Below, in pieces: positions 3,216 to 30,260 of a stretch of DNA of 37,202 nucleotides; the first letter of the stretch is position 1; every line of letters starts with the position of its first letter. The notes under the pieces were generated by a model. That model worked only from the letters and a program-made list of their open reading frames with translations, was not told where the DNA came from and made no database searches. This DNA is from Thermodesulfobacteriota bacterium (GTDB taxonomy: Bacteria; DASVDK01): positions 1 to 37,202 of the forward strand of contig DASVDK010000273.1 of assembly GCA_036381125.1 (NCBI GenBank), in the 5' to 3' direction. Position numbers and translations under genes: made by a program.

Positions 3216-4493
3216 ATGTCCGACGCCGCATCGCGAGAGCCCGGGCAGCCGACCAGGTCCCGTCCCTGCCGCCGCCGCTGTGTCGCGTGCGGCCGCCCGT
3301 CCGCCGAGGTCCGCCGCCTCGTGTCGAACGAACGGTCGCGCATCTGCACCGACTGCCTCGACGCGTTCAACGCCGCGGTCCTCGTGGCCGACCAGCCCCA
3401 GACCGAGTCGTCCCGCCGCGAGCTGCCGACGCCGGCCCGCATCAAGGCCATTCTCGACGACTACGTGATCGGCCAGGAGAAGGCCAAGAAGATCCTCTCC
3501 GTGGCGGTCTACAACCACTACAAGAAGATCGAGTCGAACGCGGTCAACCGCGACGTCGAGCTCAAGAAGTCGAACATCCTCCTCCTCGGGCCCACCGGCA
3601 CCGGCAAGACGCTCCTGGCCCAGGTGCTGGCGCGGGTGCTGCGCGTGCCGTTCGCGATGGCCGACGCCACGGCCCTCACCGAGGCGGGCTACGTCGGCGA
3701 GGACGTGGAGAACATCCTCCTCAACCTCGTCATGGCGGCCGACTACAACATCGAGCGGGCCCAGAAGGGGATCGTCTACATCGACGAGATCGACAAGATC
3801 GCCCGCAAGAGCGAGAACCCCTCCATCACCCGCGACGTCTCGGGCGAGGGGGTGCAGCAGGCCCTCCTCAAGATCATCGAGGGCACCGTCGCCAACGTCC
3901 CGGTCACGGGGGGGCGCAAGCACCCGCAGGAGGAGGTCATCCGGGTCGACACCACGAACATCCTCTTCATCTGCGGGGGGGCCTTCGACGGCCTCGAGAC
4001 GATCATCGAGCGGCGCCTGGCCACCCGTGGGGCGATCGGGTTCGGCGCCGAGACAGCGCCCAGGACCAGGCGGGACGGCTCGCTCATGCCGCTCGTCCAG
4101 CCGGAGGACCTCTTCAAGTACGGCATGATCCCGGAGTTCGTCGGCCGGCTCCCGGTGACGACCGTCCTCCACGAGCTGGACGAGGAGGCACTCGTTCGCA
4201 TCCTCAAGGAGCCGAAGAACGCGCTGGTCAAGCAGTATCAACGCCTCTTCAAGCTCGACGGGGTGAGCCTCGAGTTCACGGACGCGTCGCTGCGGGCGGT
4301 GGCGCGCGAGGCGATCCGCCGCCGCGCCGGGGCCCGCGGCCTCTCGGCCATCCTCGAGGAGGCGATGCTCGACCTGATGTACGACCTGCCGTCGCGCCGC
4401 GACGTCAAGGGCTGCCGCATCGACGAGGCGGTCGTCCTCGGGCAGGGGACGCCGGAGTTCACCTACCGGGCCCGCAGGCGCAGGACGGCGTAA
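3216..4493 (+). CDS. clpX: ATP-dependent Clp protease ATP-binding subunit ClpX (paralog 2)
   Basis: CVAC...CTDC zinc finger, [43 protein letters not shown] loop; AGGAG upstream. Confidence 0.95.
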
Positions 4494-8901: not shown

Positions 8902-8951
8902 GGGGTCAGGTCTTTCCATTTTCCAGACCGGCAAACGTTGGGGCCTGACCC
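8902..8951. repeat. REP-like 25-bp unit (family A) between convergent genes
   Basis: 8902-8926 GGGGTCAGGTCTTTCCATTTTCCAG is the exact reverse complement of 22376-22400; a partial inverted copy (GGCCTGACCC) follows at about 8942-8951. Confidence 0.8.
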
Positions 8952-8987: not shown

Positions 8988-9701
8988 TCAGCGGTGTCCC
9001 GTGAAGAGCCGGTCCGGGCCGACCCCGAAGCGGCCGAGCAGCTCGAGGGGCCAGGCGAGGTTGCCGACCTCCGAGGCGACGTAGGCGCCGCTGCCGAGCG
9101 CCAGCCGCGCCCCCGCGGCGAGCCACCGTTCGAGGGCCCGCTCGTGGGGCAGCCTCGTCCGCCCGGACAGCTCGAGCGCCACGCCCTCCCGGGCCGCCGT
9201 CCGGCCGATGCGGTCGAGGTGCCGGTCGTCGAACAGCGCGGGGGCGTTTGGCCGCAGGGCGCTCGGCAGGAGCGTGGGGTGGGCGAGGAGGTCGATCGGC
9301 TCCTCCTCCATCGCCTCGCAGAGCCGGTCGACGACCGCCTGCACGATCTCCTCGGGCGCGACCTCCGGGCGGCCCGGGTCGGCCATCGAGACGGTATGCG
9401 GCCCGATGCGCAGCGTGTGGAGCCCTCCCACGACGTAGTCGAGGCGGCGCTCCACGGACGGGGAGAGCCGGAACCGTTCGCCCAGCTCGACCTCGAGCGA
9501 GCGGAGCACCGGGAAGTCGGCCAGCTCGTCGAGGTGCTCGTGGATGCGCGCGTCGGTCGACAGGACGCTGTCGCCCCCAGCGTGGTCGGCGACGCCGATC
9601 CGCACGCCCCGGCGGTCGGCCAGCTCGACCAGCTCCGGCAGCTCGAGGCCGCCGGAGACGGCCGAGTGGACGTGGAGGTCGACGAGCCGGTCGACGCTCA
9701 T
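8988..9701 (-). CDS. PHP-domain (histidinol-phosphatase/YcdX-like) protein, metal site partly degenerate
   Basis: DLHVHS, ADHA, LEVE, GGLH, LAHP; last motif reads GSGAY instead of GSDAH. The ATG at 9701 overlaps the upstream TGA. Confidence 0.78.
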   Translation of the reverse strand: MSVDRLVDLHVHSAVSGGLELPELVELADRRGVRIGVADHAGGDSVLSTDARIHEHLDELADFPVLRSLEVELGERFRLSPSVERRLDYVVGGLHTLRIGPHTVSMADPGRPEVAPEEIVQAVVDRLCEAMEEEPIDLLAHPTLLPSALRPNAPALFDDRHLDRIGRTAAREGVALELSGRTRLPHERALERWLAAGARLALGSGAYVASEVGNLAWPLELLGRFGVGPDRLFTGHR

Positions 9702-9856
9702 GCCGGGCGGCCCCGCTCGGCCGGCCGGACGATGCGGGCGACGAGCGCCTCGCCCACCGCGGTCTCCGGCGGGTCGGCCGGCTCCGCGACGGCCCAACGC
9801 CAGCGCCCGGTCACCTGCGACGCGAAGCGGTCGACGTGGAGCATGAGGAGCCGCAT
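9698..9856 (-). pseudogene. 52-aa ORF resembling the N-terminus of stand-alone archaeal-type threonyl-tRNA synthetase editing-domain proteins, apparently truncated
   Basis: Translates to MRLLMLHVDRFASQVTGRWRWAVAEPADPPETAVGEALVARIVRPAERGRPA; the MRLL.lH.D...EP....v.EALV pattern is recalled from that family; ATGA overlap with the PHP gene. Confidence 0.45.
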
Positions 9857-10013
9857 CCCGAGACGCTAGCGCCGGGAGCCTGCCGCGGGCAAGGTCTCGG
9901 CGAGGTGGTCGGCCGCCCGTCTGGCAGCCCTCGTTGGCCGTCCCGGCGAGGCGTGCACGACGACCTCGGCGTCGGGCAGCGGCGGAGGCCGTCGGCCGCT
10001 CCCGGGACGCAGT

Positions 10014-10077
10014 GCGCTTGCCGCCGGCGGGCAGCGTCTCGCGAGCCACCACGTCGAAGGGAGAGGAGAAGAGGCGC
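10014..10077 (-). pseudogene. Remnant copy of part of the 10842-11252 gene
   Basis: 64-nt direct repeat of 11067-11130 with 5 mismatches; encodes RLFSSPFDVVARETLPAGGKR. Confidence 0.7.
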
Positions 10078-10474
10078 CGCCTGCCGCAGTCAGGCGTCGC
10101 CGAAACGAGCCCCGGAATGCGGCAGGGTGCGGCGTGGGGTACCCGCGGTGTCTGGGGCCGACCGCGAGGTTTGGAATGGCAGTTGAGGCATCCAGTACCG
10201 CATCAAGCTCGCCGTCTGTCGAGAGTCAGACGAAGTGGCCTGTCAAGGGCCTTTTTCGTTTGCGAGCCAGTCGACGAAGCGACCATAGTCCAGGCCAATA
10301 GGCACGTTTGGGCAGGGTGCGGCCGGTGGGGCAATGGCGAAGGGCCAGAAGGGCGAGTCGCAGCCAGGCGTAGCGCTTGAGATCATCGGGCCGCGAGCTT
10401 CAGAAGAAGATCGATCCTGGACGTAGTTCCAGCAATTCGACACCTAGAGGGACAACGCGACCTGGGGACAAGCC

Positions 10475-10672
10475 ATGGCGGCAGCCACAGAAGCAGCTGC
10501 GGCGATCCACTTCGCGCTCGTGCTTTTCCTGCTCTGGGTGCTCATCTTCTGGATGTGGCCGAGCCTACGGCTGGATATGGGACAGATTTCGTTTCCGAAG
10601 CACGCTCCCGGCAGCCACGCCTCCGCTCGGCCGCCCCGTGCCGCACGCCGCGACGCCCGGAACGGCCCTTGA
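10475..10672 (+). CDS. Short hypothetical membrane peptide or gene fragment in a lower-GC patch
   Basis: One strong TM segment (IHFALVLFLLWVLIFWMW); atypical codon usage; GGGGA upstream. Confidence 0.3.
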   Translation: MAAATEAAAAIHFALVLFLLWVLIFWMWPSLRLDMGQISFPKHAPGSHASARPPRAARRDARNGP

Positions 10673-10841
10673 TGGCGGTATGGCGTCCGGCTCAACTTGG
10701 CCGCCCTGCACGAGGAGGCGTCGCCCCACCCGTCCGAGGCGGGGAGCCGCTGGTGCTGGCAGGGCTACGAGCGGCGCGAGGACCGGCGGGACCTCGGCCG
10801 CGGGTGGGGTGGCGCCGGGGAACAAGGCCGTTCCCGCGCCA

Positions 10842-11252
10842 TCAGAAAGGCGGGCCGTCCCAGCCCTTGGCGCGGTCCTCCATCTCGAAGGTCTGGAAGG
10901 CGCGGTTGAAGGAGCCGGCGCTCTCCTCCTGATGGAGGCGCCAGACCTCGTGCAGGCGGATCTCGACGGTCAGGTGGGTGCCGGGCGCGAGGCGGACGAC
11001 CTCCCTGGCGGCAGGGCCGAGCCTCCCCTTCAGGCGAATGCCGTACTCGCCGGGGGGGAGCGCGAAGCGCTTGCCGCCGGCGGGCAGCGTCTCGCGCGCC
11101 ACCAGGTCGAAGGGCGACGAGAACAGGCGCAGCTCCGCGGCGGGCAGGTGAAAGAGCCCGCTGGTGAAGCGGATGGTGAGCCCCTCGTGGCCGGGCGGCG
11201 CCGGCGCCTCGGTGACCGCGATCGTGGGGCGTTCGTCCGTGGCGATGGTCAT
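10842..11252 (-). CDS. Hypothetical protein (beta-rich)
   Basis: High GC3; 6 nt downstream of the previous gene; the synonymous-biased remnant copy at 10014-10077 supports this reading frame. Confidence 0.72.
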   Translation of the reverse strand: MTIATDERPTIAVTEAPAPPGHEGLTIRFTSGLFHLPAAELRLFSSPFDLVARETLPAGGKRFALPPGEYGIRLKGRLGPAAREVVRLAPGTHLTVEIRLHEVWRLHQEESAGSFNRAFQTFEMEDRAKGWDGPPF

Positions 11253-11258
11253 GGCGCG

Positions 11259-11801
11259 CTACCCCGCCTGCGCCACGCTCCACCGCGTCGGCGGCGGCAG
11301 CGGTAGGCCCTTCGCCTTGCGCTCGCGGATGGGCCCGCTGTGGCCCAGCGCCTTCACCGCGGCGATGTCGGCCTTCACCCGGTCGGCGAGCGCGGGGTAG
11401 CCGAAGCCGCGCAGGAGGCGCTCCGCCTCGGTGAGCCCGATGTTGTCCACCGCGCGAGCCGACTCGACCCAGAGCACGGCGGCCCGGGCGGCCGCCATGG
11501 CGCGTGGGTGCGTCACGAAGCGGCGCGCCTCGGCGACGAGGTCCCGGTACGACTCGACCGCGACCGCCTTCGCGCCGACACGCTCCACCTCCGCGGTGAA
11601 CCGGTCGAAGAAGGCGGCGGTCCAGAGGCGCTCGTCGGCGAGGACCCGCCTTGCCGTCTCGTTGCCCGCCTTCGCGCGCAGGACGAGCCGCGCGGCGTCG
11701 AGCCGCTCGCCGGCCGTCTTCGCCGCCCGCATCCGCGCGAGGGCCGACCTGAGATCCGGGGGGCCGAACCAGGCGTCCGCGATCTCGCTCCAGACTCCCA
11801 T
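11259..11801 (-). CDS. Hypothetical protein (helical)
   Basis: GGGAGG RBS, high GC3, tight operon spacing. Confidence 0.72.
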   Translation of the reverse strand: MGVWSEIADAWFGPPDLRSALARMRAAKTAGERLDAARLVLRAKAGNETARRVLADERLWTAAFFDRFTAEVERVGAKAVAVESYRDLVAEARRFVTHPRAMAAARAAVLWVESARAVDNIGLTEAERLLRGFGYPALADRVKADIAAVKALGHSGPIRERKAKGLPLPPPTRWSVAQAG

Positions 11802-11811
11802 GCCGGCCTCC

Positions 11812-12204
11812 CTACGCCCCCGCGCCGGCGCGGCTCGCCACGACGACGACGAGGAGGGCGAAGCCGATGACCTGGAGGCCGAGGAGCGCCGCCTGGGCGC
11901 CGACCTGATGGGCGAGGACGCGCCGCTTGGCCTTGCTCATGCCGAAGGCGACCACGTAGACCACCAGGGCCGCCACGACGAGGAGCCCGATCGTCCCGCC
12001 GAGAACGCCCCCGGTGAAGCCGGCGAGGGCGAGGAGGGCGAGCAGCAGGGTGCCTCCGAGCGTGGCGTAGTGCGCGGCCGCCTGGTAGCTGCCGTCGTAG
12101 ATCATGGTCACCTGGCCCTTGACGGTGTAGGCGGCCACCAGGGCGAGGCTCACCAGGAAGACCCCCGGCACGAGCGCCAGCAGGAACGCGAACAGACTCT
12201 CCAT
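11812..12204 (-). CDS. Hypothetical membrane protein (about 4 TM helices)
   Basis: Four hydrophobic segments; GGAGGA RBS; 16 nt after the FrhB-like stop. Confidence 0.75.
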   Translation of the reverse strand: MESLFAFLLALVPGVFLVSLALVAAYTVKGQVTMIYDGSYQAAAHYATLGGTLLLALLALAGFTGGVLGGTIGLLVVAALVVYVVAFGMSKAKRRVLAHQVGAQAALLGLQVIGFALLVVVVASRAGAGA

Positions 12205-20743: not shown

Positions 20744-22264
20744 GTGGGATTCGAGAACCTGCTGCTCGGCTTCGAGGTCGCGCTTCATCCCTACAACCTC
20801 CTCATCGCCGCCGCCGGGATCGTCCTCGGTGTCATCGTGGGGGTGCTGCCGGGCCTCGGCGGCGCCAACGGCGTGGCGATCCTCCTGCCGCTCACGTTCT
20901 CGATGGAGCCGACCTCGGCCATCATCCTCCTGAGCTGCCTCTACTGGGGCGCCCTCTTCGGGGGCGCCATCACGTCGATCCTCTTCAACATCCCGGGCGA
21001 GCCCTGGTCGGTCGCCACGACCTTCGACGGCCACCCGATGGCCCGCAACGGTCAGGGAGGCCAGGCGCTCACCGCCGCCTTCTCCTCGTCGTTCATCGGC
21101 GCCTTCGCGGCGGTCGTCGTCATCACGTTCTTCGCGCCGCTCCTCGCCGATCTGGCCCTCAAGTTCGGGCCGGCCGAGTTCTTCGCCATCCAGTTCCTGA
21201 CGTTCTCGGCCTTCGTCGGACTCGGCGGCGGAAGCCCCCTCAAGACCCTCGTGGCCATCATGATCGGCTTCATCCTCGGCTCGGTCGGCCTCGACATGGT
21301 GACCGGCCGGCTGCGGCTCACGTTCGGCTTCACCGACCTCATGAAGGGGTTCGACTTCATCGTGGCCGTGATCGGCCTCTTCGGCATCGGCGAGATCCTC
21401 CTCACGATGGAGGAGGGGCTCTCCTTCCGCGGGGCGATCGCGAAGATCAGCCCGACCGTCGTCTGGCAGACCTGGAAGACCTTCCCCCGCTACGCCCGCA
21501 CGTTCGCGCGGGGGGCCTTCATCGGCTTCTGGATGGGCTTCAAGCCGGGCGGCGCCACGCCGGCCTCCTTCATGAGCTACGCCTTCGCCAAGCGCTTCTC
21601 GAAGCATCCGGAGCGCTTCGGCAAGGGGGAGATCGAGGGGGTGATCGCCCCCGAGACGGCGGCCCACGCCGCCGGTACGGCGGCGCTCCTGCCGATGATC
21701 ACGCTCGGCATCCCGGGCTCGCCGACCGCGGCGGTCATGCTCGGCGGCCTCATCATCTGGGGCCTCCAGCCGGGGCCGATGCTCTTCGTCGACCAGCCGC
21801 ACTTCGTCTGGGGCCTCATCGCGAGCATGTACACCGGGAACGTCATCGGCGTCCTCATGGTGCTCGCCTTCGTCCCCTTCTTCGCCTCGATCCTCAAGAT
21901 CCCCTTCGCCATCCTCACGCCGCTCATCGTGTCGATCTGCGCCATCGGGGCCTACTCCGTGCACAACAGCATGATCGACATCTGGTTCATGCTCGTCTTC
22001 GGCGTCGTGGGCTACGTCTTCAAGAAGCTCGACTACCCGCTCGCACCGCTCGTCCTCGCCCTGGTCCTCGGGGACATGGCCGAGGCCGCCCTGCGCCAGA
22101 GCCTCATCATGTCGGGCGGCTCGATCGGCATCTTCTTCACGCGGCCCATCTCCGGGACGATCATGTGGTTCGCGCTGTTCCTCTTCGCGATGCCGGTGAT
22201 CGGCCCCTGGTGGCGGAAGCTCAGAGGGAAGCCGGCCGCGAGCCTGCCGTCCGTCCCGCACTGA
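20744..22264 (+). CDS. tctA: Tripartite tricarboxylate transporter large permease TctA
   Basis: GVLPGLG, SILFNIPG, TTFDGHPMA, APETA, TLGIPGS, PLVLALVLG. Confidence 0.95.
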   Translation: MGFENLLLGFEVALHPYNLLIAAAGIVLGVIVGVLPGLGGANGVAILLPLTFSMEPTSAIILLSCLYWGALFGGAITSILFNIPGEPWSVATTFDGHPMARNGQGGQALTAAFSSSFIGAFAAVVVITFFAPLLADLALKFGPAEFFAIQFLTFSAFVGLGGGSPLKTLVAIMIGFILGSVGLDMVTGRLRLTFGFTDLMKGFDFIVAVIGLFGIGEILLTMEEGLSFRGAIAKISPTVVWQTWKTFPRYARTFARGAFIGFWMGFKPGGATPASFMSYAFAKRFSKHPERFGKGEIEGVIAPETAAHAAGTAALLPMITLGIPGSPTAAVMLGGLIIWGLQPGPMLFVDQPHFVWGLIASMYTGNVIGVLMVLAFVPFFASILKIPFAILTPLIVSICAIGAYSVHNSMIDIWFMLVFGVVGYVFKKLDYPLAPLVLALVLGDMAEAALRQSLIMSGGSIGIFFTRPISGTIMWFALFLFAMPVIGPWWRKLRGKPAASLPSVPH

Positions 22265-22325
22265 CGCGGATCACCGTGGCGTGAGGCGCGGGGGACGGGT
22301 CGGCTGCGGCCCGTGGAGAACGCGC

Positions 22326-22400
22326 CTGGAAAACGGAAAGGCCTGACCCCCTGGAAAACGGAAAGACCTGACCCCCTGGAAAATGGAAAGACCTGACCCC
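22326..22400. repeat. Tandem array of three 25-bp REP-like units (family A)
   Basis: CTGGAAAAYGGAAAGRCCTGACCCC at 22326, 22351 and 22376, head-to-tail with no spacers. Confidence 0.9.
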
Positions 22401-22488
22401 ACGGACGGCAACGGTGGCGCGCGCCCTTGTCGAGGCCCCCGGGTGTCGTTACCCTGAGCCCGTTTGACCGGATCGCCTGGGGGCTCTC

Positions 22489-23199
22489 GTGAACGACCAC
22501 CCGATTCCGCGCCGTGTCGTCGCCATCGCGGCGCATCCGGACGACCTCGACTTCGGCTGCGCCGGCACCCTGGCGCTCTGGGCCCGGCAGGGCGCGGAGG
22601 TGACGCAACTCCTCGTCACGAGCGGCGACAAGGGCTTCGAGGACGACCGCCCGCTCGAGGAGAAACAGGAGATCCGCGAGCGCGAGCAGCGGGCGGCCGC
22701 GCGCGAGATCGGCGCCCGGGCCCCGCACTTCCTCCGCTTCCCGGACGGCGAGGTGGAGAACACGCCGGCCCTGCGGCGGGAGATCGTGCGGGTCCTGCGC
22801 GCCGTGCGGCCCGACACGGTGCTCAGCTTCGACCCGGCGAACCTCGCGTTCGACAACTTCTACCGGTACCACCCGGACCACCGGGCGGTCGCCATGGCCG
22901 CCTACGATGCCCTCTACCCGGCGACCGGCAATCGCAACTTCTTCCCCGACCTCCTGCTCGAGGGGCTCGAGCCGCACAAGGTCAAGGTCGCGTACTTCAT
23001 CAGCCCCTCGCAGCCGGACGTCTGGATCGACATCTCGTCCACCTTCGATCGGAAGGTGGCGGCGCTCAGGGCCCACGCGAGCCAGATCAGGGACCCCGAG
23101 GCGATCGCCGAGTACGTGGCCGATTGGGCCCGCCGCGTCGGCGCGCCGAAGGGGCTCGCGCTCGCCGAGTCGTTCCGGCGTCTCGAGGTCCCGGACTAG
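22489..23199 (+). CDS. PIG-L/LmbE family N-acetylglucosaminyl deacetylase
   Basis: AHPDD, TSGDKG, IREREQRAAA..IG, PDG, HPDH, ALRAHASQ, AESFRR. Confidence 0.92.
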   Translation: MNDHPIPRRVVAIAAHPDDLDFGCAGTLALWARQGAEVTQLLVTSGDKGFEDDRPLEEKQEIREREQRAAAREIGARAPHFLRFPDGEVENTPALRREIVRVLRAVRPDTVLSFDPANLAFDNFYRYHPDHRAVAMAAYDALYPATGNRNFFPDLLLEGLEPHKVKVAYFISPSQPDVWIDISSTFDRKVAALRAHASQIRDPEAIAEYVADWARRVGAPKGLALAESFRRLEVPD

Positions 23200-23201
23200 C
23201 C

Positions 23202-23993
23202 GTGCGTCCCATACCGTTGCCCGGGCTCGGCGGACCGGGTGCGCCTCCCGGGGGCGGGCATTGGCCCGACGGGTGGCGGCTCACGCGGTTTCCGGGTGCG
23301 GGCGGCGCCGGAGCCGGCCTGGTGGTGCGGGAGCGAGGCCGGCCCGGCTATTTCACCGACCATGCGAGTCGCTTCCTCGCGGCGCACCTCACCGTCCCGC
23401 CCGGCGCGGCGGTGGCCGAGCCGGGCTGCGGCACGGCCGCGTTGTCGGTGCTGGCGGCCCGTCTCGGGGCCGGCCGCGTCTTCGCCACCGACGTCGACGC
23501 GACGGCGCTCGCGCTGGCACGCTCGACCGTGGAGGCCAACGGCCCGCTGCCGGTGACCGTTCTCGAAGGCGACCTCCTCGACCCGCTGCCGGCGGCCGAG
23601 CGCCTCGACCTCGTCGTGGCGCTCCTGCCGCACAAGCCGGCGCCGGCCGCCTTCTCCGTGCGGTACTACGGCGGCGAGGACGGCACCGACCTCGTCCGGC
23701 GTGCGATCGAGCAGGCGTCGCACCGGCTGAGGCCGCACGGCGTGCTGCTCCTCTACCACCACTCGATCGCCAACCTCCCGCGGGTCCGCGCCGCGGCGCA
23801 GGCGGCCGGGTTCTCGATCGAGACGCTCGCCTCGCGCAAACGCTACTTCACCGAGCGCGAGTTCGACGGCTACGCACCCGGCGGGATGGCGCACCTCGAG
23901 CGGCTCCGCCGGGCGGGGGCGGCGGAGTTCCACCGCGACGCCTTCGGGCTCTACTTCGTCGCCCGCGTGCTGCGGCTCGCGCGCCGGCCATGA
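23202..23993 (+). CDS. Class I SAM-dependent methyltransferase (HemK/PrmC-like fold)
   Basis: VAEPGCGTA motif I, ATDVD, GDLLDPL, GGEDGTD; the NPPY position reads LLPH. Start uncertain (GTG 23202). Confidence 0.8.
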   Translation: MRPIPLPGLGGPGAPPGGGHWPDGWRLTRFPGAGGAGAGLVVRERGRPGYFTDHASRFLAAHLTVPPGAAVAEPGCGTAALSVLAARLGAGRVFATDVDATALALARSTVEANGPLPVTVLEGDLLDPLPAAERLDLVVALLPHKPAPAAFSVRYYGGEDGTDLVRRAIEQASHRLRPHGVLLLYHHSIANLPRVRAAAQAAGFSIETLASRKRYFTEREFDGYAPGGMAHLERLRRAGAAEFHRDAFGLYFVARVLRLARRP

Positions 23994-24682
23994 AGGCGCT
24001 GATCGTCAACGCCGACGACCTCGGCCTCGCGCCGGAGGTCGATCGCGGGATCCTCCGCGCCGCGCTGGCGGGGCGCGTGACGAGCGCGACCCTCATGGTG
24101 ACGGTGCCGGGGTCGGAGGGCGGGGCGCACACCGCCCGGCGGCTGGCCGCCCTCGGGGTCTCCGTGGGCCTGCACGTCGACCTCGTCACCGGCCGCCGGG
24201 TGGACCCGCGCGACGCGCAGGCGGTGGCCGCCGAGGTGCGCGATCAGGCCGAGCGGTTCGAGGCGCTCGTCGGGCGCCCCCCGACGCACCTCGACACCCA
24301 CAAGCACACGCACCGCGACTTCGAGCCGGTGCGGGCCGCCGTGGCGGACCTCGCCCACCGTCTCGGCGCACCGGTGCGCGCCCAGGACCCGGCGGTGCGG
24401 GCCTGGCTGCGGGCGCGCGGCCTGCGCACGCCGGACGCCTTCGTGGGGGACGTGTCGCCCGAGCCCTACTGGACCGCCGACCGGCTCCTCGCCGCCGTGG
24501 CGGGTGTGGGCCCCGGCACGACCGAGCTCATGTGCCACCCGGGCGAGCCGATGGGGCCGATGCCCGGCCTCTTCTACCTCGCCCAGCGGGCGACCGAGCT
24601 CGAGGCGCTGCTCGACCCGCGCCTGCCGGCCGCCTGCGCCGCCGCGGGGGTGCGCCTCGTCCCCTTCACCGGTCTCGGGTGA
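23990..24682 (+). CDS. YdjC/ChbG/HpnK family carbohydrate deacetylase
   Basis: LIVNADDLG, TSATLM, VGLH, PTHLDTHKH, TELMCHPG, R..EL..L; ATGA overlap with the methyltransferase. Confidence 0.9.
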   Translation: MKALIVNADDLGLAPEVDRGILRAALAGRVTSATLMVTVPGSEGGAHTARRLAALGVSVGLHVDLVTGRRVDPRDAQAVAAEVRDQAERFEALVGRPPTHLDTHKHTHRDFEPVRAAVADLAHRLGAPVRAQDPAVRAWLRARGLRTPDAFVGDVSPEPYWTADRLLAAVAGVGPGTTELMCHPGEPMGPMPGLFYLAQRATELEALLDPRLPAACAAAGVRLVPFTGLG

Positions 24683-24690
24683 GAGGAGTC

Positions 24691-25629
24691 ATGCGTCTCG
24701 TCCTGCTCGACTACAGTCCGTACGGCAACGTCTACGACGCGGTGTCGAACCGCCGCCTGGTGCGGGCCGCCGCGGATGCGGGATACACCCTCGACCTCGT
24801 GCCGTGGGGGGGCGTACGCCTCGCGGCCGGTCCGGAAGGGCTCGCGGCTCGCGGCCGCGCGGCCGACGGCCGCGACCTCGACCTCGCCGCGGCCGACTGC
24901 GTCCTGCCGCGGTTCGACGCGCGCGATGCGCGCGACCTGGCGCTCGTGCTCGGCACGGTGCGCTGGCTCGCCGCCATGGGGGTGCCGACCATGCCCGGTC
25001 CCGACGCCATCCTCGCGGCCGAGGACAAGGTCGAGACGGCGCGGCGCCTCGTCGCGCTCGGCCTGCCGGCGCCCCGGTCGGCCGTCGTCGCGGCGCCCGG
25101 GTCTCCCGAGACCCGGGAGGGGCTCGACGCCGTCGTCGAGGCGGTCGGGGGCTACCCGGTCGTGGTGAAGGCGCCGGTGGGGTGGGGCGGCCACGGCGTG
25201 GCCCTGGCCGAGTCGCGGGCGGCGCTCCGCTCCTGGCTCGACCTCGCGGCGCAGGCGGCGCCCAACGCGACCTACCTCGTCCAGGCGCACGTCGCCCACG
25301 ACGTCTCCGTGCACGTCGTCGCGGCCGAGGGCCGCGTGGTGCTCCACGGGCAGAAGACGGTGGCCGAAGGGGAGTTCCGCACGAACGCGCGCCTGGGGGG
25401 CCGCGAGGCGGCCACCCGGCTCACGGCCGAGGAGCGCGAGATCGCGCTGACCGCGCTGGCCGGCTTCGGCATCGACGCGGGGAGCGTCGACCTCGCCCGC
25501 ACCGCCGGCGGGCCGGTCGTGCTCGAGGTGAACGCCTGTACGGGGCTCGCCGGCGAGCACGACGACCCGATCGCCGACGCCTTCGTCGCCGCCGCGGCGT
25601 CGGTTGCGCGACGGGCCGGGCGGGGCTGA
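24691..25629 (+). CDS. RimK/LysX-like ATP-grasp amide ligase
   Basis: AEDK, YPVVVKAPVGWGGHGV, LVQ, EFRTNARLGG, VDL, VLEVN; AGGAG RBS. Confidence 0.85.
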   Translation: MRLVLLDYSPYGNVYDAVSNRRLVRAAADAGYTLDLVPWGGVRLAAGPEGLAARGRAADGRDLDLAAADCVLPRFDARDARDLALVLGTVRWLAAMGVPTMPGPDAILAAEDKVETARRLVALGLPAPRSAVVAAPGSPETREGLDAVVEAVGGYPVVVKAPVGWGGHGVALAESRAALRSWLDLAAQAAPNATYLVQAHVAHDVSVHVVAAEGRVVLHGQKTVAEGEFRTNARLGGREAATRLTAEEREIALTALAGFGIDAGSVDLARTAGGPVVLEVNACTGLAGEHDDPIADAFVAAAASVARRAGRG

Positions 25630-26705
25630 TGCGGGTCGCCCTCCTGCTCCCCTACCGGCCGTCGGCCAACCGGGGCAACTCCACGGCGGCGCTGCGGCTC
25701 GCGCGCCACCTCGAGGCGGCCGGCGCCGAGGTGGCGACGGCGAGCCTCGAGGCGGCCGGCGTCCCCTTCGGTCCCGAGGGGCGCGACCACGCCGTGCGCC
25801 GCCTCGGTCCGGAGCTGCGCCGGTTCCGGCCCGAGGTGGTCCACGCCCTTCACGGCTACCGGTCCGGTCCGGCCGGCGTCGCGCTCGCCCGCGCGCTCGG
25901 CGCGGCGCTCGTGATCGGCCTCAGGGGGACCGACGTCTCCGTCGACCTCCACGATCGATCGCGGCGCGAGGCGATGCTCGACGCCCTCGACGCCGCCGAC
26001 GCGATCGTCGCCTTCGCCCGGTTCATGCTCGAGCCGGTGCTCGCCGCCAGGCCGTCGCTCGCGCCCCGCGCGCACGTCGTGGCGCACGGCGTGGCCGAGG
26101 CGTTCTTCGCCGGGGGAGGGCCCCGGCTCGAGCCGCCGCGGACGCTTCGCTTCCTGCTGCCGGCGAACCTGCGATCCATCAAGGCGCCGCACGTGGCGGT
26201 CCACGGGCTCGACCCGGTGGCCGCGTCGCGGCCGGACCTCCGGCTCGCGGTCGCCGGCCCGGTGATCGAGCCCGAGGTGGGCCGCCGCCTCGCGCAGGCG
26301 GCCGCCTCGCGGCCGTGGGTCACGCTCCTCGGCGAGGTGCCGCACGCCGAGATGCCCGCCGTCCTCGCGGCGGCCGACGTGGTGATGAACACGTCGATCG
26401 CCGAGGGGATGTCCAACGCGGTCCTCGAGGCGATGGCCATGGGACGCGCGCTCCTCGTGTCGGACATCCCGGCGCACCGCGAGATCGTCGAGCCGGAGGT
26501 CTCGGGGCTGCTCTTCGACGTGTCGGGGCCCGACGGGGGAGCGGCGGCCCTCGCCCGGCAGGCGGCGCGGCTCGCGGAGGACCCCGCGCTGCGGGCGAGG
26601 CTCGGACGGGCCGCCAGGGCGCGCGCGCTCGCGCGTCACCGGGCCGAGGACGAGGCCGCACGTACGCTCGAGGTCTACCGGGAGGCCAGGGCGAGGCGCG
26701 GGTGA
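25629..26705 (+). CDS. Glycosyltransferase family 4 (SenB/GLT1D1-like N-terminus)
   Basis: GNSTAALR, HALHGYRS, GTD, NLRSIKAP, NTSIAEGMSNAVLEAMA; TGATG overlap with the ligase gene. Confidence 0.88.
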   Translation: MRVALLLPYRPSANRGNSTAALRLARHLEAAGAEVATASLEAAGVPFGPEGRDHAVRRLGPELRRFRPEVVHALHGYRSGPAGVALARALGAALVIGLRGTDVSVDLHDRSRREAMLDALDAADAIVAFARFMLEPVLAARPSLAPRAHVVAHGVAEAFFAGGGPRLEPPRTLRFLLPANLRSIKAPHVAVHGLDPVAASRPDLRLAVAGPVIEPEVGRRLAQAAASRPWVTLLGEVPHAEMPAVLAAADVVMNTSIAEGMSNAVLEAMAMGRALLVSDIPAHREIVEPEVSGLLFDVSGPDGGAAALARQAARLAEDPALRARLGRAARARALARHRAEDEAARTLEVYREARARRG

Positions 26706-26793
26706 GGGACTGTGACGATCGTCACCTGGCCGCCCGGCGCGTCTGGCGGGCCTCCTGCGCGCATGATATTCTCGGCCGCAAAGGAGACTGGCG

Positions 26794-27306
26794 ATGGCGT
26801 CGGACCGTGGTACTCCCGATCCCTGGCTCGCGGTCGTCCGCATCGCGCTCGGCCTCTGGTTCCTCAAGGCGGCGTTCGAGAAGCTCGACGTCGTCTGGGC
26901 CTTCGGCTACGTGCCGCTGCCGGGCGCCAGCGAGCGGTTCCAGGTCGTCCTGGCGACGCGGGTGGCGGAGTGGGTCGCCACGCCGGAGGTCGCGGGGTGG
27001 TACCGGGGATTCCTCCACTCGGTCGTCCTGCCCAACGCCGCGACGGTCGCGCACCTCCAGGCGATCGGCGAGACGGCGGTGGGCCTCGGCCTGCTGCTCG
27101 GGCTCTTCACGCCCGCGTCGGCCGCCGTCGGCCTGTTCCTCACGCTCAACTACGCGCTCGTGACGATCCACCTGGGCTTCTGCCAGCAGGGCTTCCATTT
27201 CCTCCTGGTCGCGTGCCTCGTCGCCGTCCTCTTCGGCCAGGCGGGCCGCCGCCTCGGCATCGACGGCTGGCGCAAGGGGCCGCGGCCGGCCGTCACCCTG
27301 GCATGA
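26794..27306 (+). CDS. DoxX / TQO small subunit DoxD family membrane protein
   Basis: VRIALGLWFL.A..EKL, WY..FL, GE.AVGLGLLLGLFT, AGR.LGIDG; AAGGAG RBS. Confidence 0.85.
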   Translation: MASDRGTPDPWLAVVRIALGLWFLKAAFEKLDVVWAFGYVPLPGASERFQVVLATRVAEWVATPEVAGWYRGFLHSVVLPNAATVAHLQAIGETAVGLGLLLGLFTPASAAVGLFLTLNYALVTIHLGFCQQGFHFLLVACLVAVLFGQAGRRLGIDGWRKGPRPAVTLA

Positions 27307-27322
27307 GGGAGCGTTCGACGCC

Positions 27323-27952
27323 ATGACCGTCCGCACGCCCGAGGTCCGCACGATCACCGTCGGCCCCTACGACAACAAGGTCTACCTGCTGCGCGACCCC
27401 GAGACCGGCAAGGGGCTCCTCGTCGACGCCGCCTCGGAGCCGGACACCATCCTCGCCGCCGTCGGCACGACGCCCCTCGTCGCGCTCGTGGTCACGCACG
27501 GCCACTTCGACCACGTCGGCGCCCTGGCCGACCTGCGGAGCCGCACCGGCGTTCCCGCCGTCATGCACGGAGCGGACGTCCGACGCTTCGGGCTCGAGGT
27601 GGACCGGGTGGTGGAGGGGGACGACGCCATCGAGGTCGGTGCGCTCCGCGTCGCGCTCCTCCACACGCCGGGGCACACGCCGGGCGGGCTGTCGCTCGCG
27701 TGCGGCGAGGCCCTCTTCTCGGGCGACACCCTCTTCCCCGGCGGACCGGGCAAGACCGACTCGCCCGAGGCCTTCCTCGACGTGGAGCGGAGCATCCGCG
27801 ACCGGCTGCTGACGCTCCCGGAGGCGACCGTCGTCTATCCCGGGCACGGCGGGCCGACGACGATCGGCGAGGCGAAGCGCGAGTACGCCGCCTTCGCCGC
27901 CCGCCCGCGCCGGCCGGGGCTGTACGGCCACGTGCGGTGGATGGGGGGCTAG
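27323..27952 (+). CDS. MBL-fold metallo-hydrolase (glyoxalase II-like)
   Basis: THGHFDH, HTPGHTPG, FSGDTLFPGGPG, YPGHG. Confidence 0.92.
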   Translation: MTVRTPEVRTITVGPYDNKVYLLRDPETGKGLLVDAASEPDTILAAVGTTPLVALVVTHGHFDHVGALADLRSRTGVPAVMHGADVRRFGLEVDRVVEGDDAIEVGALRVALLHTPGHTPGGLSLACGEALFSGDTLFPGGPGKTDSPEAFLDVERSIRDRLLTLPEATVVYPGHGGPTTIGEAKREYAAFAARPRRPGLYGHVRWMGG

Positions 27953-28064
27953 CGAGCAGGTCCCGAGCGGCGGGCCCCGATGCGACGGCTCGCCGGCTCC
28001 GGAACGCCGCCGTGTCCGCATGGCTCGTGAAAGCGCGCCGACGCGAGTGCGTCCTCGGCGCGAG

Positions 28065-28400
28065 CTACCTGGGCGAGCCCGACGCCGAGCCGCGGAGCCG
28101 CGCCTCGACGTAGCTGCTGAGCGCCGGGTCCGCCAGGACGTGCCAATGGATCTGCAGGAACTCCTCGTACGACATCGGGGAGTCGTCCAGCGCGGCCTCG
28201 ATCGTGTCGCGGCGCTGCCCGGTGAGATCGGTCGACTCGGCGGCGCGCGCCATCTCCGGGCCCTGGCTGGCGAGCTGACGGCGCGCCTCGACGTAGCGCT
28301 GCAACTGCGTGTCGGGGACCCGCGCGGCCGATGACTCGGGATCGGTGGCGCACCCGGCGATCAGGACGGCCGCGGCGAGGGTGAGGATCGTGCGGCGCAT
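28065..28400 (-). CDS. Hypothetical lipoprotein
   Basis: Lipobox LIAG-C after an MRR-hydrophobic signal; AAGGAGG RBS. Confidence 0.75.
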   Translation of the reverse strand: MRRTILTLAAAVLIAGCATDPESSAARVPDTQLQRYVEARRQLASQGPEMARAAESTDLTGQRRDTIEAALDDSPMSYEEFLQIHWHVLADPALSSYVEARLRGSASGSPR

Positions 28401-28472
28401 GGCTGCCTCCTTGGCGGCGGGAGCGCCGGCTCCCGGCTCGCCAGGGGAGCACCAAGCGTGCCGGCCGTCGGC

Positions 28473-30260
28473 TCAGATGGCGCGCGACCCGCGCCGGCCG
28501 TCGAGCGGATCGCGGTCCGGAAAGTACTCCCGCCAGCGTCGGTCGACCAGGGCGACTGTCTCGGGGGCCGGTTCGACCTCCTTCGGGTAGCTCGGCTTCA
28601 TCCGCGCGTCGATCACGATGGGCCCGCGGTAGCAGAGGTGGTGTCGCCGGACCTCCACCGCCGCGGCGTGCAGGTCGGCGGCCGGCTCGAAGCGGGTGAA
28701 CACCTGCCAGAGGAACCGCGGCGCGGAGGCGGCAGGCGCCAGGTCGTCGGCGAGGACGACGAGCGGCCAGGCGGCGACGGCCGGGTGGCGCGCGAGCCGG
28801 GCGGCCTGCTCGGGGTCTTCGGCGTAGGGCCGGCCGGCCACGACGAGACACCCGCCGCAGAAGACCGCGGCGCCGGCGCAGTCGGCCGGCAGGTCGCCGG
28901 AGAACGCGCGCGGCAGCTCCCGAACCGCTTCGCCGAGGCCGAGGAGGATCGCCTTGCTGCCGCGGTTCACCTCGGGGCCGGTGTAGTCGAGCGTGTCCAT
29001 GGAGAGGTTCGCGATCACGAAGAGGTCGGTCTCCCACTGGACGCGCGCGAGGAGGTGCTCGAGGAGCCCGGGGAAGTCGGTGAGGTCGAGCGGCGCGTCG
29101 GTGACGAGCAGGACCTTCGTGAGCGAGAGCTGCCCCTCGCCGAGGATCCGGAAGGCGGAGGCCATCGCCTCTCGCGGGTAGCGGTCGGCCACGACGGCGG
29201 CCGCCAGCGAGTGGAAGCCGGTCTCGCCGTACGACCAGAGGTCCCGCACGGTCGGCATGACGAGGGGGAAGAGCGGCGCGAGCAGCGCCTGGAGGTAGTC
29301 GCCGATGTAGAAGTCCTCCTGGCGCGGCTTGCCGACGACGGTCGCCGGATAGATCGCGTCGCGACGCCTCGCGATCGCCTCGACCTCGAAGACCGGGTAG
29401 TCGTGCCGGAGCGAGTAGTACCCGTAGTGGTCGCCGAAGGGCCCCTCGGGCCTGCGCACGCGCGGCGGCACCCGCCCGATCAGCGCGAACTCCGCCTCCG
29501 CGACGAGCCGGTGGGGCGAGAGCGGCGAGCGGACCATCGGGAGCCGCTCCCCGAGCAGGAGCGACGCCAGGAGCAGCTCGCCCACCGGCTCGGGGAGCGG
29601 CGCGATGGCCGCCAGGATGAGGGCGGGCGGACCGCCGAGGAAGACGGTCGCCGGCAGCGCCTCCCCCCTCGCCTCGGCCGCCGCGTAGTGGAACCCGCCC
29701 CCCTTGCCGATCTGCCAGTGCATCCCCGTCGTCGTCGGCCCGTGGATCTGCATCCGGTACACCCCGAGGTTGTGCTGGCCGGTCTCCGGATGCTCCGTGT
29801 AGACGAGCGGCAGCGTGACGAACGGGCCGCCGTCCTCGGGCCAGAGGGTGAGCGCCGGCAGGGTGTCGAGCCGCGGCGGGCGCTCGACCACGTCGAGCAC
29901 CGGGCCCGACGGGCGGGTGACGAGGCCGACGCGCAGCGCGTCGAGCGCGAGGCGGCGCGCGCCCCAGAGCTTGCCGAGCGTCGGGGGGAGGATGGTCTTC
30001 GCGAGCCCGACGACCTCGCGCACGAAGCGCTCCGGCCTGGGGCCGAAGGCGAGGTCGATCCGCTCGGGCGACCCGAAGAGGTTCGTCACGACCGGGAAGG
30101 CGCCCGAGGTCGGGCGCCGGAAGAAGAGGGCCGGCCCTCCCGCCGCCGCGACCCGGCGGTGGATCTCCGGAAGCTCGAGCGCGGGATCGACGGGCGCCTC
30201 CACCTCGAGGAGGTCGCCGCGGGCGCGGAGGGCGTCGAGGAACGGGCGGAGCGAGCGCAC
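28473..30260 (-). CDS. UbiD family prenylated-FMN-dependent decarboxylase (long form)
   Basis: PALFF, VTNLFGS, WPEDGGPFVTLP, NLGVYRMQ, EGPFGDHYGYY, VVGKP.QED, DTLDY. Confidence 0.92.
   Translation of the reverse strand: MRSLRPFLDALRARGDLLEVEAPVDPALELPEIHRRVAAAGGPALFFRRPTSGAFPVVTNLFGSPERIDLAFGPRPERFVREVVGLAKTILPPTLGKLWGARRLALDALRVGLVTRPSGPVLDVVERPPRLDTLPALTLWPEDGGPFVTLPLVYTEHPETGQHNLGVYRMQIHGPTTTGMHWQIGKGGGFHYAAAEARGEALPATVFLGGPPALILAAIAPLPEPVGELLLASLLLGERLPMVRSPLSPHRLVAEAEFALIGRVPPRVRRPEGPFGDHYGYYSLRHDYPVFEVEAIARRRDAIYPATVVGKPRQEDFYIGDYLQALLAPLFPLVMPTVRDLWSYGETGFHSLAAAVVADRYPREAMASAFRILGEGQLSLTKVLLVTDAPLDLTDFPGLLEHLLARVQWETDLFVIANLSMDTLDYTGPEVNRGSKAILLGLGEAVRELPRAFSGDLPADCAGAAVFCGGCLVVAGRPYAEDPEQAARLARHPAVAAWPLVVLADDLAPAASAPRFLWQVFTRFEPAADLHAAAVEVRRHHLCYRGPIVIDARMKPSYPKEVEPAPETVALVDRRWREYFPDRDPLDGRRGSRAI

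Follow-up and report, generated by a model that had tools for sequence, protein, structure and literature searches.

Genes for a glycosyltransferase, an amide ligase, a methyltransferase and two deacetylases that overlap or nearly touch raise the question of whether they build one product, and of what kind. We asked this of positions 22489-26705 of contig DASVDK010000273.1 (assembly GCA_036381125.1, a Thermodesulfobacteriota bacterium), whose whole stretch of 37,202 nucleotides (nt), read on the forward strand, is called the window throughout. In bacillithiol and mycothiol synthesis, a family 4 glycosyltransferase (GT4), a deacetylase and a ligase yield major redox metabolites, and SenB puts selenium into small molecules. 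A preliminary description of the window, made from its letters alone, had seen mycothiol- or bacillithiol-like logic in the five genes. Our analysis favors, with moderate confidence, a single biosynthetic operon whose product would be a modified hexosamine conjugate, small and soluble. This reading is carried by the order and coupling of the genes, by enzyme families with intact catalytic motifs, by conservation within the lineage, by natural fusions that tie the ligase to the glycosyltransferase, and by the recurrence of methyltransferase-YdjC and GT4-methyltransferase pairs in other genomes.

Five coupled genes form one operon

Because the window has a G+C content of ~72%, plain lists of its open reading frames (ORFs) are crowded, with 63 ORFs of at least 80 amino acids (aa) within 18-32 kb. 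A third-position GC frame plot combined with stop maps resolved seven genes in succession on the + strand between 22.4 and 28.0 kb, and Pfam and NCBIfam supported, at the family level, the names that the preliminary description had given to all seven:

22489-23199, + strand: PIG-L/LmbE-family zinc amidohydrolase, 236 aa (Pfam PF02585, 100.5 bits, cut-off 28.2)
23202-23993, + strand: class I S-adenosylmethionine (SAM) methyltransferase of the MTS type (small-domain, PrmC/PrmA-like), 263 aa (Pfam MTS, 44.6 bits, cut-off 23)
23990-24682, + strand: YdjC-family de-N-acetylase, 230 aa (Pfam PF04794, 159.1 bits, cut-off 29.7)
24691-25629, + strand: RimK-type ATP-grasp amide ligase, 312 aa (Pfam RimK, 76.4 bits, cut-off 21)
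25629-26705, + strand: GT4 glycosyltransferase, 358 aa (Pfam Glycos_transf_1, 70.8 bits; Glyco_trans_1_4, 74.8 bits; Glyco_transf_4, 29.2 bits)
26794-27306, + strand: DoxX/DoxD-family membrane protein, 170 aa (Pfam, 29.6 and 28.5 bits)
27323-27952, + strand: small hydrolase of the metallo-beta-lactamase (MBL) fold, 209 aa (Pfam Lactamase_B, 85.6 bits)

The first five genes make up an operon of 4.2 kb (22489-26705) with translational coupling from end to end, and all of the tight junctions previously described were reproduced. The TAG stop codon of the PIG-L gene is followed by CC and the GTG start of the methyltransferase (a 2-nt gap), the methyltransferase and YdjC genes overlap at ATGA, the YdjC stop codon TGA is separated from the ligase ATG by GAGGAGTC (an 8-nt gap that contains a ribosome-binding site), and the ligase and GT4 genes share one base in a TGATG overlap. 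The first of these junctions depends on where the methyltransferase begins, since a public record places its start at residue 41 (GTG 23322), which would open a 122-nt gap. When codons 1-40 from GTG 23202 were compared with those of a sister genome (described below), we found eight synonymous and three non-synonymous codon differences, with nine of the 13 base changes at third positions; read in the other two frames, the same stretch gave one synonymous and 10-11 non-synonymous differences. This frame-wise pattern, along with the fact that GTG 23202 is kept in the sister genome, supports the long form of the methyltransferase and hence the 2-nt gap. The 40 N-terminal residues in question are rich in Gly and Pro.

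The ligase and the glycosyltransferase are joined in natural fusions

K160, E279 and N281 of the ligase are invariant in 12 of 12 members of its clade, and we take K160 and E279-x-N281 to be the motif residues of the ATP-grasp family. The protein matched RimK-family clusters of the Atlas by fold (TM 0.83-0.86), and it scored 120.6 bits against rimK_fam (TIGR00768, cut-off 143.4) and 87.3 bits against RimK proper (NF007764, cut-off 331). A Rimk_N domain, which the classic RimK matches of the same search carry, was not detected in it. A HMMER search of 1.84 billion cluster representatives with the ligase returned 2294 matches, only five of them at E<=1e-30, and outlined a narrow clade in which identity falls from 68% to about 40%. 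The closest matches were the lineage's own representative (70% identity) and two stand-alone proteins (40-41%), followed by proteins of 622-655 aa.

Among the 150 best listed of these 2294 matches, eight were at least 600 aa long, and six of the eight (622-655 aa) consist of an N-terminal ATP-grasp domain and a C-terminal GT4 domain. The six fusions are 37-40% identical to the window ligase, and one of their clusters includes a member labeled Planctomycetota. NF038229 was the best model for the GT4 half in all six (155-228 bits); these halves start at residues 299-304, with almost no linker, and one of the fusions aligned with the window GT4 at 32% identity (E 1e-32). The domain order of the fusions is the gene order of the window. 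Because natural fusions thus join such a ligase to the same GT4 subfamily in the same order, this Rosetta-stone case shows, at the level of protein sequence, that the ligase and the GT4 act in one process. The earlier suggestion that the ATP-grasp enzyme stands in for MshC or BshC finds no support in the NCBIfam models that fit it best: RimK, LysX, MptN and CofF add L-glutamate or alpha-aminoadipate to a carboxylate, not cysteine.

We searched for further fusions and linked loci in a domain-wide sample of 400 other genomes, some of which are related to one another, so that co-occurrence counts from it are not independent. ATP-grasp::GT4 fusions, for which all 400 genomes were queried, occurred in none of them, and no ATP-grasp::methyltransferase fusion was present among the 23 proteins that were Pfam-scanned out of the 150 best listed matches. 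Thirteen longer ATP-grasp matches that were scanned are classic RimK fusions with Zn_protease, MazG or TrkA_C. The ATP-grasp query itself, run on 40 of the 400 genomes, gave generic RimK-like matches (30-34% identity) in three of them (G011, G027 and G039), with no other cluster gene within the 1.5-kb flanks of these loci. As far as we have seen, no RimK-type ligase had been paired before with a SenB/GPMC-type GT4, a combination that exists as a fusion in some phyla; we found no paper on such a cluster, on ATP-grasp/YdjC cassettes or on a 'GPMC system' in a literature search whose coverage left most subscription journals outside. The pairing joins the GT4 branch of SenB to a ligase family so far linked to glutamylating proteins and cofactors, and because of the natural fusions, its product should be a metabolite class not yet described.

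A predicted SenB-type acceptor pocket of the glycosyltransferase is altered in ligase-linked forms

The window GT4 matched NF038229 ('GPMC system family 4 glycosyltransferase') over its full length at 267.4 bits (E 1.6e-79; cut-off 400), followed at a distance by SenB (TIGR04348, 84.3 bits, cut-off 300), BshA (TIGR03999, 46.7 bits, cut-off 273.7) and MshA (31.7 bits, cut-off 462.5). In a family-profile search of solved proteins, the best matches were BshA (79.5 and 78.8 bits), SenB (71.9) and RsSenB (70.5, over the full length), and PimA is also among the solved relatives. The regulator model NF038230 (Regu_Geo_Pelo, 935 positions) reached at best 179.5 bits in the window genome against a cut-off of 1200, through its AAA+ part only.

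The GT4 carries E259-x7-E267, which we take to be the motif of its family, and a predicted oxyanion-type acceptor pocket composed of N17, H75, R78, R99, T101, D102, R182 and K185. According to published work on SenB (PMC10891094), selenophosphate is held there by N20, H58, R61, T83, T85 and R155, K158 is the key catalytic residue, and N20, T23 and E231 (within EGGAHV) are donor determinants. Alignment of the GT4 with SenB (8jjq) paired H75 with H58, R78 with R61, R99 with T83, T101 with T85, D102 with D86, R182 with R155, K185 with K158 and E259 with E231. By family alignment, N17 corresponds to SenB N20 and Ala20 to T23, and the EGGAHV place reads EGMSNA. BshA has Tyr and Pro at the positions of H75 and R78; the R-x-x-K and GTD motifs are common to BshA too and do not discriminate. 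These residues suggest that the GT4, like SenB, accommodates a small oxyanion-type acceptor.

A site table of 59 sequences revealed that one pocket position largely follows the link to the ligase. Position 99 is Arg in all GT4s of the window lineage (14 of 14) and of the fusions (6 of 6). All 26 second-tier stand-alone proteins have Thr there, as do four of the five stand-alone GT4s of the genome sample; the fifth, which lies beside a methyltransferase gene in G248, has Arg. Where SenB has T23, at position 20, ligase-linked GT4s carry Ala or Ser and 30 of 31 stand-alone forms carry Thr, with G248 (Ser) again the exception. Ligase-linked GT4s would thus have a changed pocket, more positive by one charge, and probably another acceptor, and the Arg/Thr switch at position 99 offers a simple marker of ligase-linked versus stand-alone GT4s that can guide mining. 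In a quick tree of 59 rows (SH-aLRT support, midpoint root, with a more careful search unfinished), a GPMC-like superclade of 51 rows had support 100 and divided, in a three-way split that the tree did not resolve, into the fusions (6 rows, support 100), the 14 rows of the window lineage (100) and the 31 rows of all stand-alone forms (98).

Two hydrolases keep their family motifs, and the methyltransferase departs from NPPY

The PIG-L protein contains AHPDD (residues 15-19) and HPDH (128-131), which we take to be the metal-site motifs of the PIG-L/LmbE family, and the YdjC protein contains NADDLG (7-12) and HLDTHKHTH (100-108), presumably the motifs of its own family. Specific models fit neither protein well: PIG-L scored 104.7 bits against BshB1 (cut-off 182.5), 76.3 against BshB2 (195.25) and 40.1 against MshB (224.35), and YdjC scored 101 bits against ChbG (227) and 85.6 against HpnK (232.6). 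The closest solved proteins were LnmX (5bmo, 124.8 bits) and archaeal diacetylchitobiose deacetylase (8bgn, 99 bits) for PIG-L, with BshB1 (6p2t) at only 50 bits, and chitooligosaccharide deacetylase (7vi8, 67 bits) for YdjC. YdjC is a single-copy gene in the genome. The PIG-L family is large (2485 matches, many of them 50-59% identical in Nitrospinota, Tectomicrobia and others), and homologues at E<=1e-45 were present in 10 of the 400 sampled genomes. The window genome encodes another PIG-L paralogue, 44% identical, on a different contig (G000:C36:17743-18420, - strand), and the sister genome has it too; tblastn detected no cluster gene near it.

The methyltransferase scored 45.5 bits against the PrmC equivalog (cut-off 199.1) and 45-57 bits against PrmC-like NCBIfam models. 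At the aligned place of NPPY, which is presumably the substrate motif of PrmC-type enzymes, it reads LLPHKP, and the genome has two true PrmC genes on other contigs (266.7 and 205.2 bits). The window methyltransferase is 25-32% identical to methyltransferases encoded beside YdjC or GT4 genes in three unrelated sampled genomes (G041, G273 and G248). Those three belong to one family, with 32-53% mutual identity and an NPPQMP or NVPMMP motif.

The operon is conserved within its lineage, and pairs of its genes recur elsewhere

The window belongs to a 4.33-Mb assembly that is 96% complete. In the Genome Taxonomy Database (GTDB), its phylum consists of only two genomes, both of the same genus, and NCBI files the sister as a Thermodesulfobacteriota metagenome-assembled genome. 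The sister genome has the order TctA, PIG-L, methyltransferase, YdjC, ATP-grasp, GT4, DoxX, MBL, the same as in the window, at 93-98% amino-acid identity, and its contig stops 27 residues into the MBL gene. By itself, an operon order kept in the sister genome says little. Linkage in the wider lineage was inferred from identical longest-contig values across the homologue lists of PIG-L, ligase and GT4. The values 8565 and 10743 were common to all three lists (65-77% identity), and further values were shared by two lists: the ATP-grasp and GT4 lists both had 12908, the ATP-grasp and PIG-L lists 56987, and the GT4 and PIG-L lists 16959 (71-84% identity). A profile search of genome contigs with the ligase alignment recovered one locus, on the sister's contig only, and two scans of metagenome contigs recovered no locus and one unrelated 36% fragment.

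In the 400 sampled genomes, a GPMC-like GT4 (E<=1e-50) was present in six and a YdjC homologue (E<=1e-12) in eight. Both were present in four genomes from three genera, where they lie on different contigs or 84 kb apart. An MTS-type methyltransferase gene directly precedes YdjC in G041 (L086, 6163-7977), and in G273 (L089, C35 8908-11360) a methyltransferase gene is followed by YdjC, with a 4-nt overlap, and by a ROK sugar kinase gene. In G248 (L023, 3698-5488), a GPMC-like GT4 gene is convergent with a methyltransferase gene. Across the six neighborhoods of stand-alone GPMC-like GT4s, tblastn found none of the other four cluster genes, and only the one in G248 includes a methyltransferase. 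The picture is that of a loosely linked GT4/methyltransferase/YdjC set that is sparse in several phyla, to which the window lineage added the ligase and PIG-L, packing all five into an operon. Synteny, the check proposed in the preliminary description, has support from the lineage, the fusions and pairwise adjacencies elsewhere, but not from the full five-gene set in other genomes. Together, these data support the five genes as a functional unit rather than a chance neighborhood.

A proposed pathway to a modified hexosamine conjugate

We propose a model in which the GT4 would first take an N-acetyl-hexosamine from a UDP-sugar and attach it to a small anionic acceptor, held in the SenB-type pocket of His, Arg and Thr with the extra arginine R99. 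YdjC would then strip the N-acetyl group, while PIG-L may remove a second acetyl or amide group or recycle the product. In a third step, the RimK-type ligase, working as one unit with the GT4, would form an amide; by family precedent this would place L-glutamate (or a similar amino acid) on a carboxylate of the conjugate, or alternatively the ligase may couple the carboxylate of an amino acid to the freed sugar amine. The MTS-type methyltransferase would finally methylate a heteroatom of the product. In this model the donor sugar, the acceptor, the order of steps, the acylated and methylated atoms and the release of the product as a free metabolite are all proposed. Kyte-Doolittle analysis is consistent with soluble enzymes, in that no clear hydrophobic segment appears in any of the five (the GT4, with a peak of 1.64, is borderline), compared with two segments in DoxX and ten in TctA. 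Furthermore, the operon contains no gene for a flippase, a lipid-carrier GT2, a GT-C, an acyltransferase or a hopanoid enzyme.

Several observations weigh against this reading. The close relatives of the cluster enzymes have no assigned product or substrate, and every specific (equivalog) model stayed far below its cut-off for the window enzymes. GT4 enzymes often serve lipids or polymers at the membrane surface while not being membrane proteins themselves. The methyltransferase lacks an NPPY-type motif and its relatives read NPPQ or NVPM, which does not fix the target atom. The full five-gene set was seen in the window lineage only (0 of the 400 other genomes, of which 40 were queried with the ATP-grasp ligase and all with the fusion), and an ATP-grasp homologue (E<=1e-8) was found in none of five genomes with a GPMC-like GT4, four of which have YdjC and/or the methyltransferase. 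Conservation in the wider lineage, at least of both ends of the operon and its middle, hinges on reading matching longest-contig values as the same contigs, as we do. PIG-L relatives of 50-59% identity sit beside carboxyltransferase, MBL or unrelated genes in six places that were Pfam-scanned, with the exception of G117 (L047), where a generic GT4 gene (31% identity over 127 residues) adjoins the PIG-L gene; apart from that GT4, tblastn found no other cluster gene in 12 PIG-L neighborhoods, including that of the window genome's own paralogue. PIG-L may therefore act on an amide other than a sugar N-acetyl group, which would account for the presence of two 'deacetylases' in the operon.

Genes and repeats around the operon

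The GT4 and DoxX genes are separated by 88 nt and the DoxX and MBL genes by 16 nt, and a good ribosome-binding site precedes the DoxX start. The two had been proposed as downstream users of the product, a role that rests on adjacency confirmed in the sister genome only, and their membership of the unit is uncertain. The MBL protein had further been called glyoxalase II-like; its fold is upheld, but its resemblance to glyoxalase II is below threshold (79.3 bits against GloB TIGR03413, cut-off 200.8, over positions 9-164 of 248), and it scored 69.2 bits against SolJ (cut-off 350).

Upstream of the operon, on the same strand, lies a TctCBA tricarboxylate transporter. The MBL gene is followed by a small unassigned ORF and then, on the other strand, by a gene for a UbiD-family decarboxylase of 595 aa (28473-30260, - strand), ~500 nt downstream of the cluster. 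This UbiD protein is closest to the menaquinone SCO4490 type (453 bits, cut-off 495.9). UbiD-family genes also adjoin the stand-alone GT4 in G041 (L022 10702-12243) and YdjC in G055 (L088 7651-9297), which may be chance. An Rfam scan of the window matched no family, neither a sigma-70-like promoter nor an intrinsic terminator was found in 22100-28600, and shuffled sequences folded just as well as the GT4-DoxX spacer (z -0.15) and the stretch that follows the MBL gene (z 0.37).

Just 5' of the PIG-L gene, a 25-nt unit matching TGGAAAAYGGAAAGRCCTGACCCC is present in three tandem copies (22327-22400, + strand), compared with two copies in the sister genome, and a further copy follows an M20 peptidase gene (8902-8925, - strand). 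Genome-wide, the unit has 244 matches with at most one mismatch (124 forward and 120 reverse), often as adjacent pairs, and a reversed-pattern control had none. It is a dispersed, REP-like intergenic repeat that is AT-richer than the 72% GC genome. We considered a precursor peptide encoded by small ORFs in the 224-nt spacer upstream of PIG-L and rejected it because these ORFs fall in the dispersed repeat. Elsewhere in the window are two tandem ClpX-like genes (zinc finger plus AAA_2; 955-2202 and 3216-4493, + strand), between which lies a 243-aa ORF without a Pfam match. On the - strand, 8988-12204 holds four successive ORFs (237, 136, 180 and 130 aa) with coding-type third-position GC and without a Pfam match, adjoining a gene for an FrhB/FdhB-like iron-sulfur protein.

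Alternative readings of the operon

The GT4 might instead glycosylate a membrane lipid or polymer (a phospholipid, hopanoid, quinone or polysaccharide), after which YdjC and PIG-L would expose an amine and the ligase and methyltransferase would decorate the head group. YdjC enzymes with known substrates include HpnK (hopanoid-GlcNAc) and NaxD (undecaprenyl-phosphate-GalNAc), and these precedents, together with the HpnK score, speak for such an envelope modification, as do the presence of PimA among the solved GT4 relatives, the DoxX membrane protein after the operon, the menaquinone-type UbiD gene downstream and the UbiD genes beside GT4 in G041 and YdjC in G055. We nevertheless regard it as unlikely, given that the operon has none of the GT2, GT-C, flippase, acyltransferase or hopanoid genes listed above, that its five enzymes are without clear membrane segments, and that the HpnK and ChbG models are both below cut-off. 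The polar and basic SenB-type pocket would also suit a small oxyanion better than a lipid head group.

The likeness to SenB raises a chalcogen-sugar route, in which the GT4 would use selenophosphate from SelD (or a sulfur analogue) to make a 1-seleno- or 1-thio-hexosamine, the methyltransferase would cap Se or S, and the deacetylases and ligase would lead to an N-aminoacyl methylseleno-glucosamine. Among NCBIfam models, SenB ranks second for the GT4 and for all of its relatives, and H75, R78, T101, D102, R182, K185 and E259 match selenophosphate-pocket, catalytic and donor residues described for SenB (PMC10891094). At the first two of these positions BshA carries Tyr/Pro. The window genome encodes SelD (351 bits, with an in-frame TGA) on another contig. 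In G273, a stand-alone GT4 that keeps every SenB pocket residue is immediately preceded by SelD on the same strand. This route is decidedly unlikely for the operon itself: the GT4 is far below the SenB cut-off, the family profile ranks BshA slightly above SenB, and the pocket is changed exactly in the ligase-linked forms, with Arg for SenB T83 and Ala or Ser for T23. In addition, the window holds no SenA, EgtB or OvoA-like partner and no SenC or SelD, and G035, a 100% complete genome with the best GPMC score (385 bits), has no SelD at E<=1e-40. SelD occurs in 144 of 301 genomes overall and in five of the six with a GPMC-like GT4, which is no enrichment, and we dropped this co-occurrence as phylogenetic-profile evidence.

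The G273 locus itself (L019, C35 ~9523-11935, - strand) pairs the only SelD of that genome (319.5 bits, with an in-frame TGA) with a GT4 that scored 361.5 bits on NF038229 and 112 on SenB. This arrangement is suggestive of a candidate Se-glycosyltransferase outside any selenoneine cluster. Of the products listed in the preliminary description, the S/Se-sugar is the one that gained some evidence, from a SenB-like pocket, a SelD in the genome and a SelD beside a stand-alone GT4 relative, but this evidence is weak and the pocket is altered. It is a long shot that the operon and the ATP-grasp::GT4 fusions make a Se- (or S-) linked amino sugar by SenB-like C-Se bond formation, Se-methylation, de-N-acetylation and aminoacylation. 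If they did, an anaerobe of a two-genome phylum would possess a selenosugar pathway with no relation to that of selenoneine or ovoselenol, and stand-alone GT4 relatives such as the one beside SelD in G273 would be a second, widespread Se-glycosyltransferase family.

A new low-molecular-weight thiol, as the preliminary description had in mind, would arise by conversion of GlcNAc-X to GlcN-X, Cys-GlcN-X and an N-methyl form, with the ATP-grasp enzyme in place of BshC or MshC and with DoxX and the MBL enzyme as users. The order of enzyme types fits (N-methyl-)bacillithiol synthesis as outlined in two abstracts (PMC6282198, PMC6336425), and downstream of the operon comes a glyoxalase-II-like MBL gene. 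We found no GshA, GCS2, GshB or BshC in the 96%-complete genome and hence no known major thiol route, MshC being outside this search. The BshC model (TIGR03998) had no match in the genome at E<=1e-5 and was positive in three of 14 control genomes (Bacillus subtilis, Thermus thermophilus and Deinococcus radiodurans), over its cut-off in two. Against a thiol stand the ligase's best-named relatives, which use glutamate or alpha-aminoadipate, and the BshA, BshB and MshA models, which reached 47 (cut-off 274), 105 (183) and 32 bits (463). The MBL protein is under the GloB cut-off and small MBL hydrolases are ubiquitous, and DoxX and MBL lie 88 nt from the operon, in a linkage seen in the sister genome alone. 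The (N-methyl-)bacillithiol route therefore remains a fair analogy for the logic of the operon, but a thiol product is very improbable, with the BshA, BshB, MshA and MshB models all far below cut-off.

Finally, we give next to no credence to the absence of any pathway, in which the ATP-grasp and methyltransferase enzymes would be RimK/PrmC-type protein modifiers beside unrelated sugar genes (their best named matches are indeed RimK and PrmC-related methyltransferases), and we ruled out this housekeeping reading, which the preliminary description had itself raised, because six independent cluster representatives carry the ligase joined to a GT4 of this subfamily and two true PrmC genes lie elsewhere in the genome, with RimK and PrmC scores far below cut-off, no NPPY in the methyltransferase and translational coupling through all five genes adding to the case.

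Comparison with known systems

Read as an operon for a soluble hexosamine conjugate, the five genes share parts with four sets of characterized enzymes. The first comprises RimK, LysX, MptN and CofF, which have the same fold and ATP-grasp core as the ligase and whose expected chemistry is formation of an acyl-phosphate and then of an amide with an amino acid. The window ligase differs from them in its score below the subfamily cut-off, its missing Rimk_N domain and its narrow clade, and above all in its partner, which is a glycosyltransferase rather than a ribosomal protein, carrier protein or cofactor. The second is bacillithiol and N-methyl-bacillithiol synthesis (BshA, BshB, BshC and NmbA), which uses the same enzyme types, namely a GT4, a PIG-L deacetylase, an amide ligase and a SAM methyltransferase. 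Here the Bsh models fall far short of their cut-offs, the ligase belongs to the RimK-type ATP-grasp enzymes and is not BshC, an extra YdjC deacetylase of another fold is present, and the acceptor-side residues of BshA differ from those of the GT4 at H75 and R78.

ChbG (YdjC family) and the archaeal deacetylase Dac (PIG-L family) are, among enzymes of named function, the closest solved relatives of the two hydrolases, and both strip N-acetyl groups from GlcNAc units. Unlike in chitobiose use, the ChbG model is below cut-off here, the setting is biosynthetic (a GT4 and a ligase), and the operon has no chitobiose transporter or kinase. The GT4 has its best model, although under the cut-off, in NF038229 (Glyco4_Geo_Pelo), as do the GT4 halves of all six fusions. 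SenB (TIGR04348; PDB 8jjq, 8fbx and 8k5u) lies on the same GT4 branch, and its H58, R61, T85, D86, R155, K158 and E231 are kept in the window GT4, whereas its model score falls well short of cut-off, and in both the window lineage and the fusions Arg stands in for T83 and Ala or Ser for T23. SenA and SenC are absent from the cluster, and in their place the GT4 is partnered by a ligase, two deacetylases and a methyltransferase.

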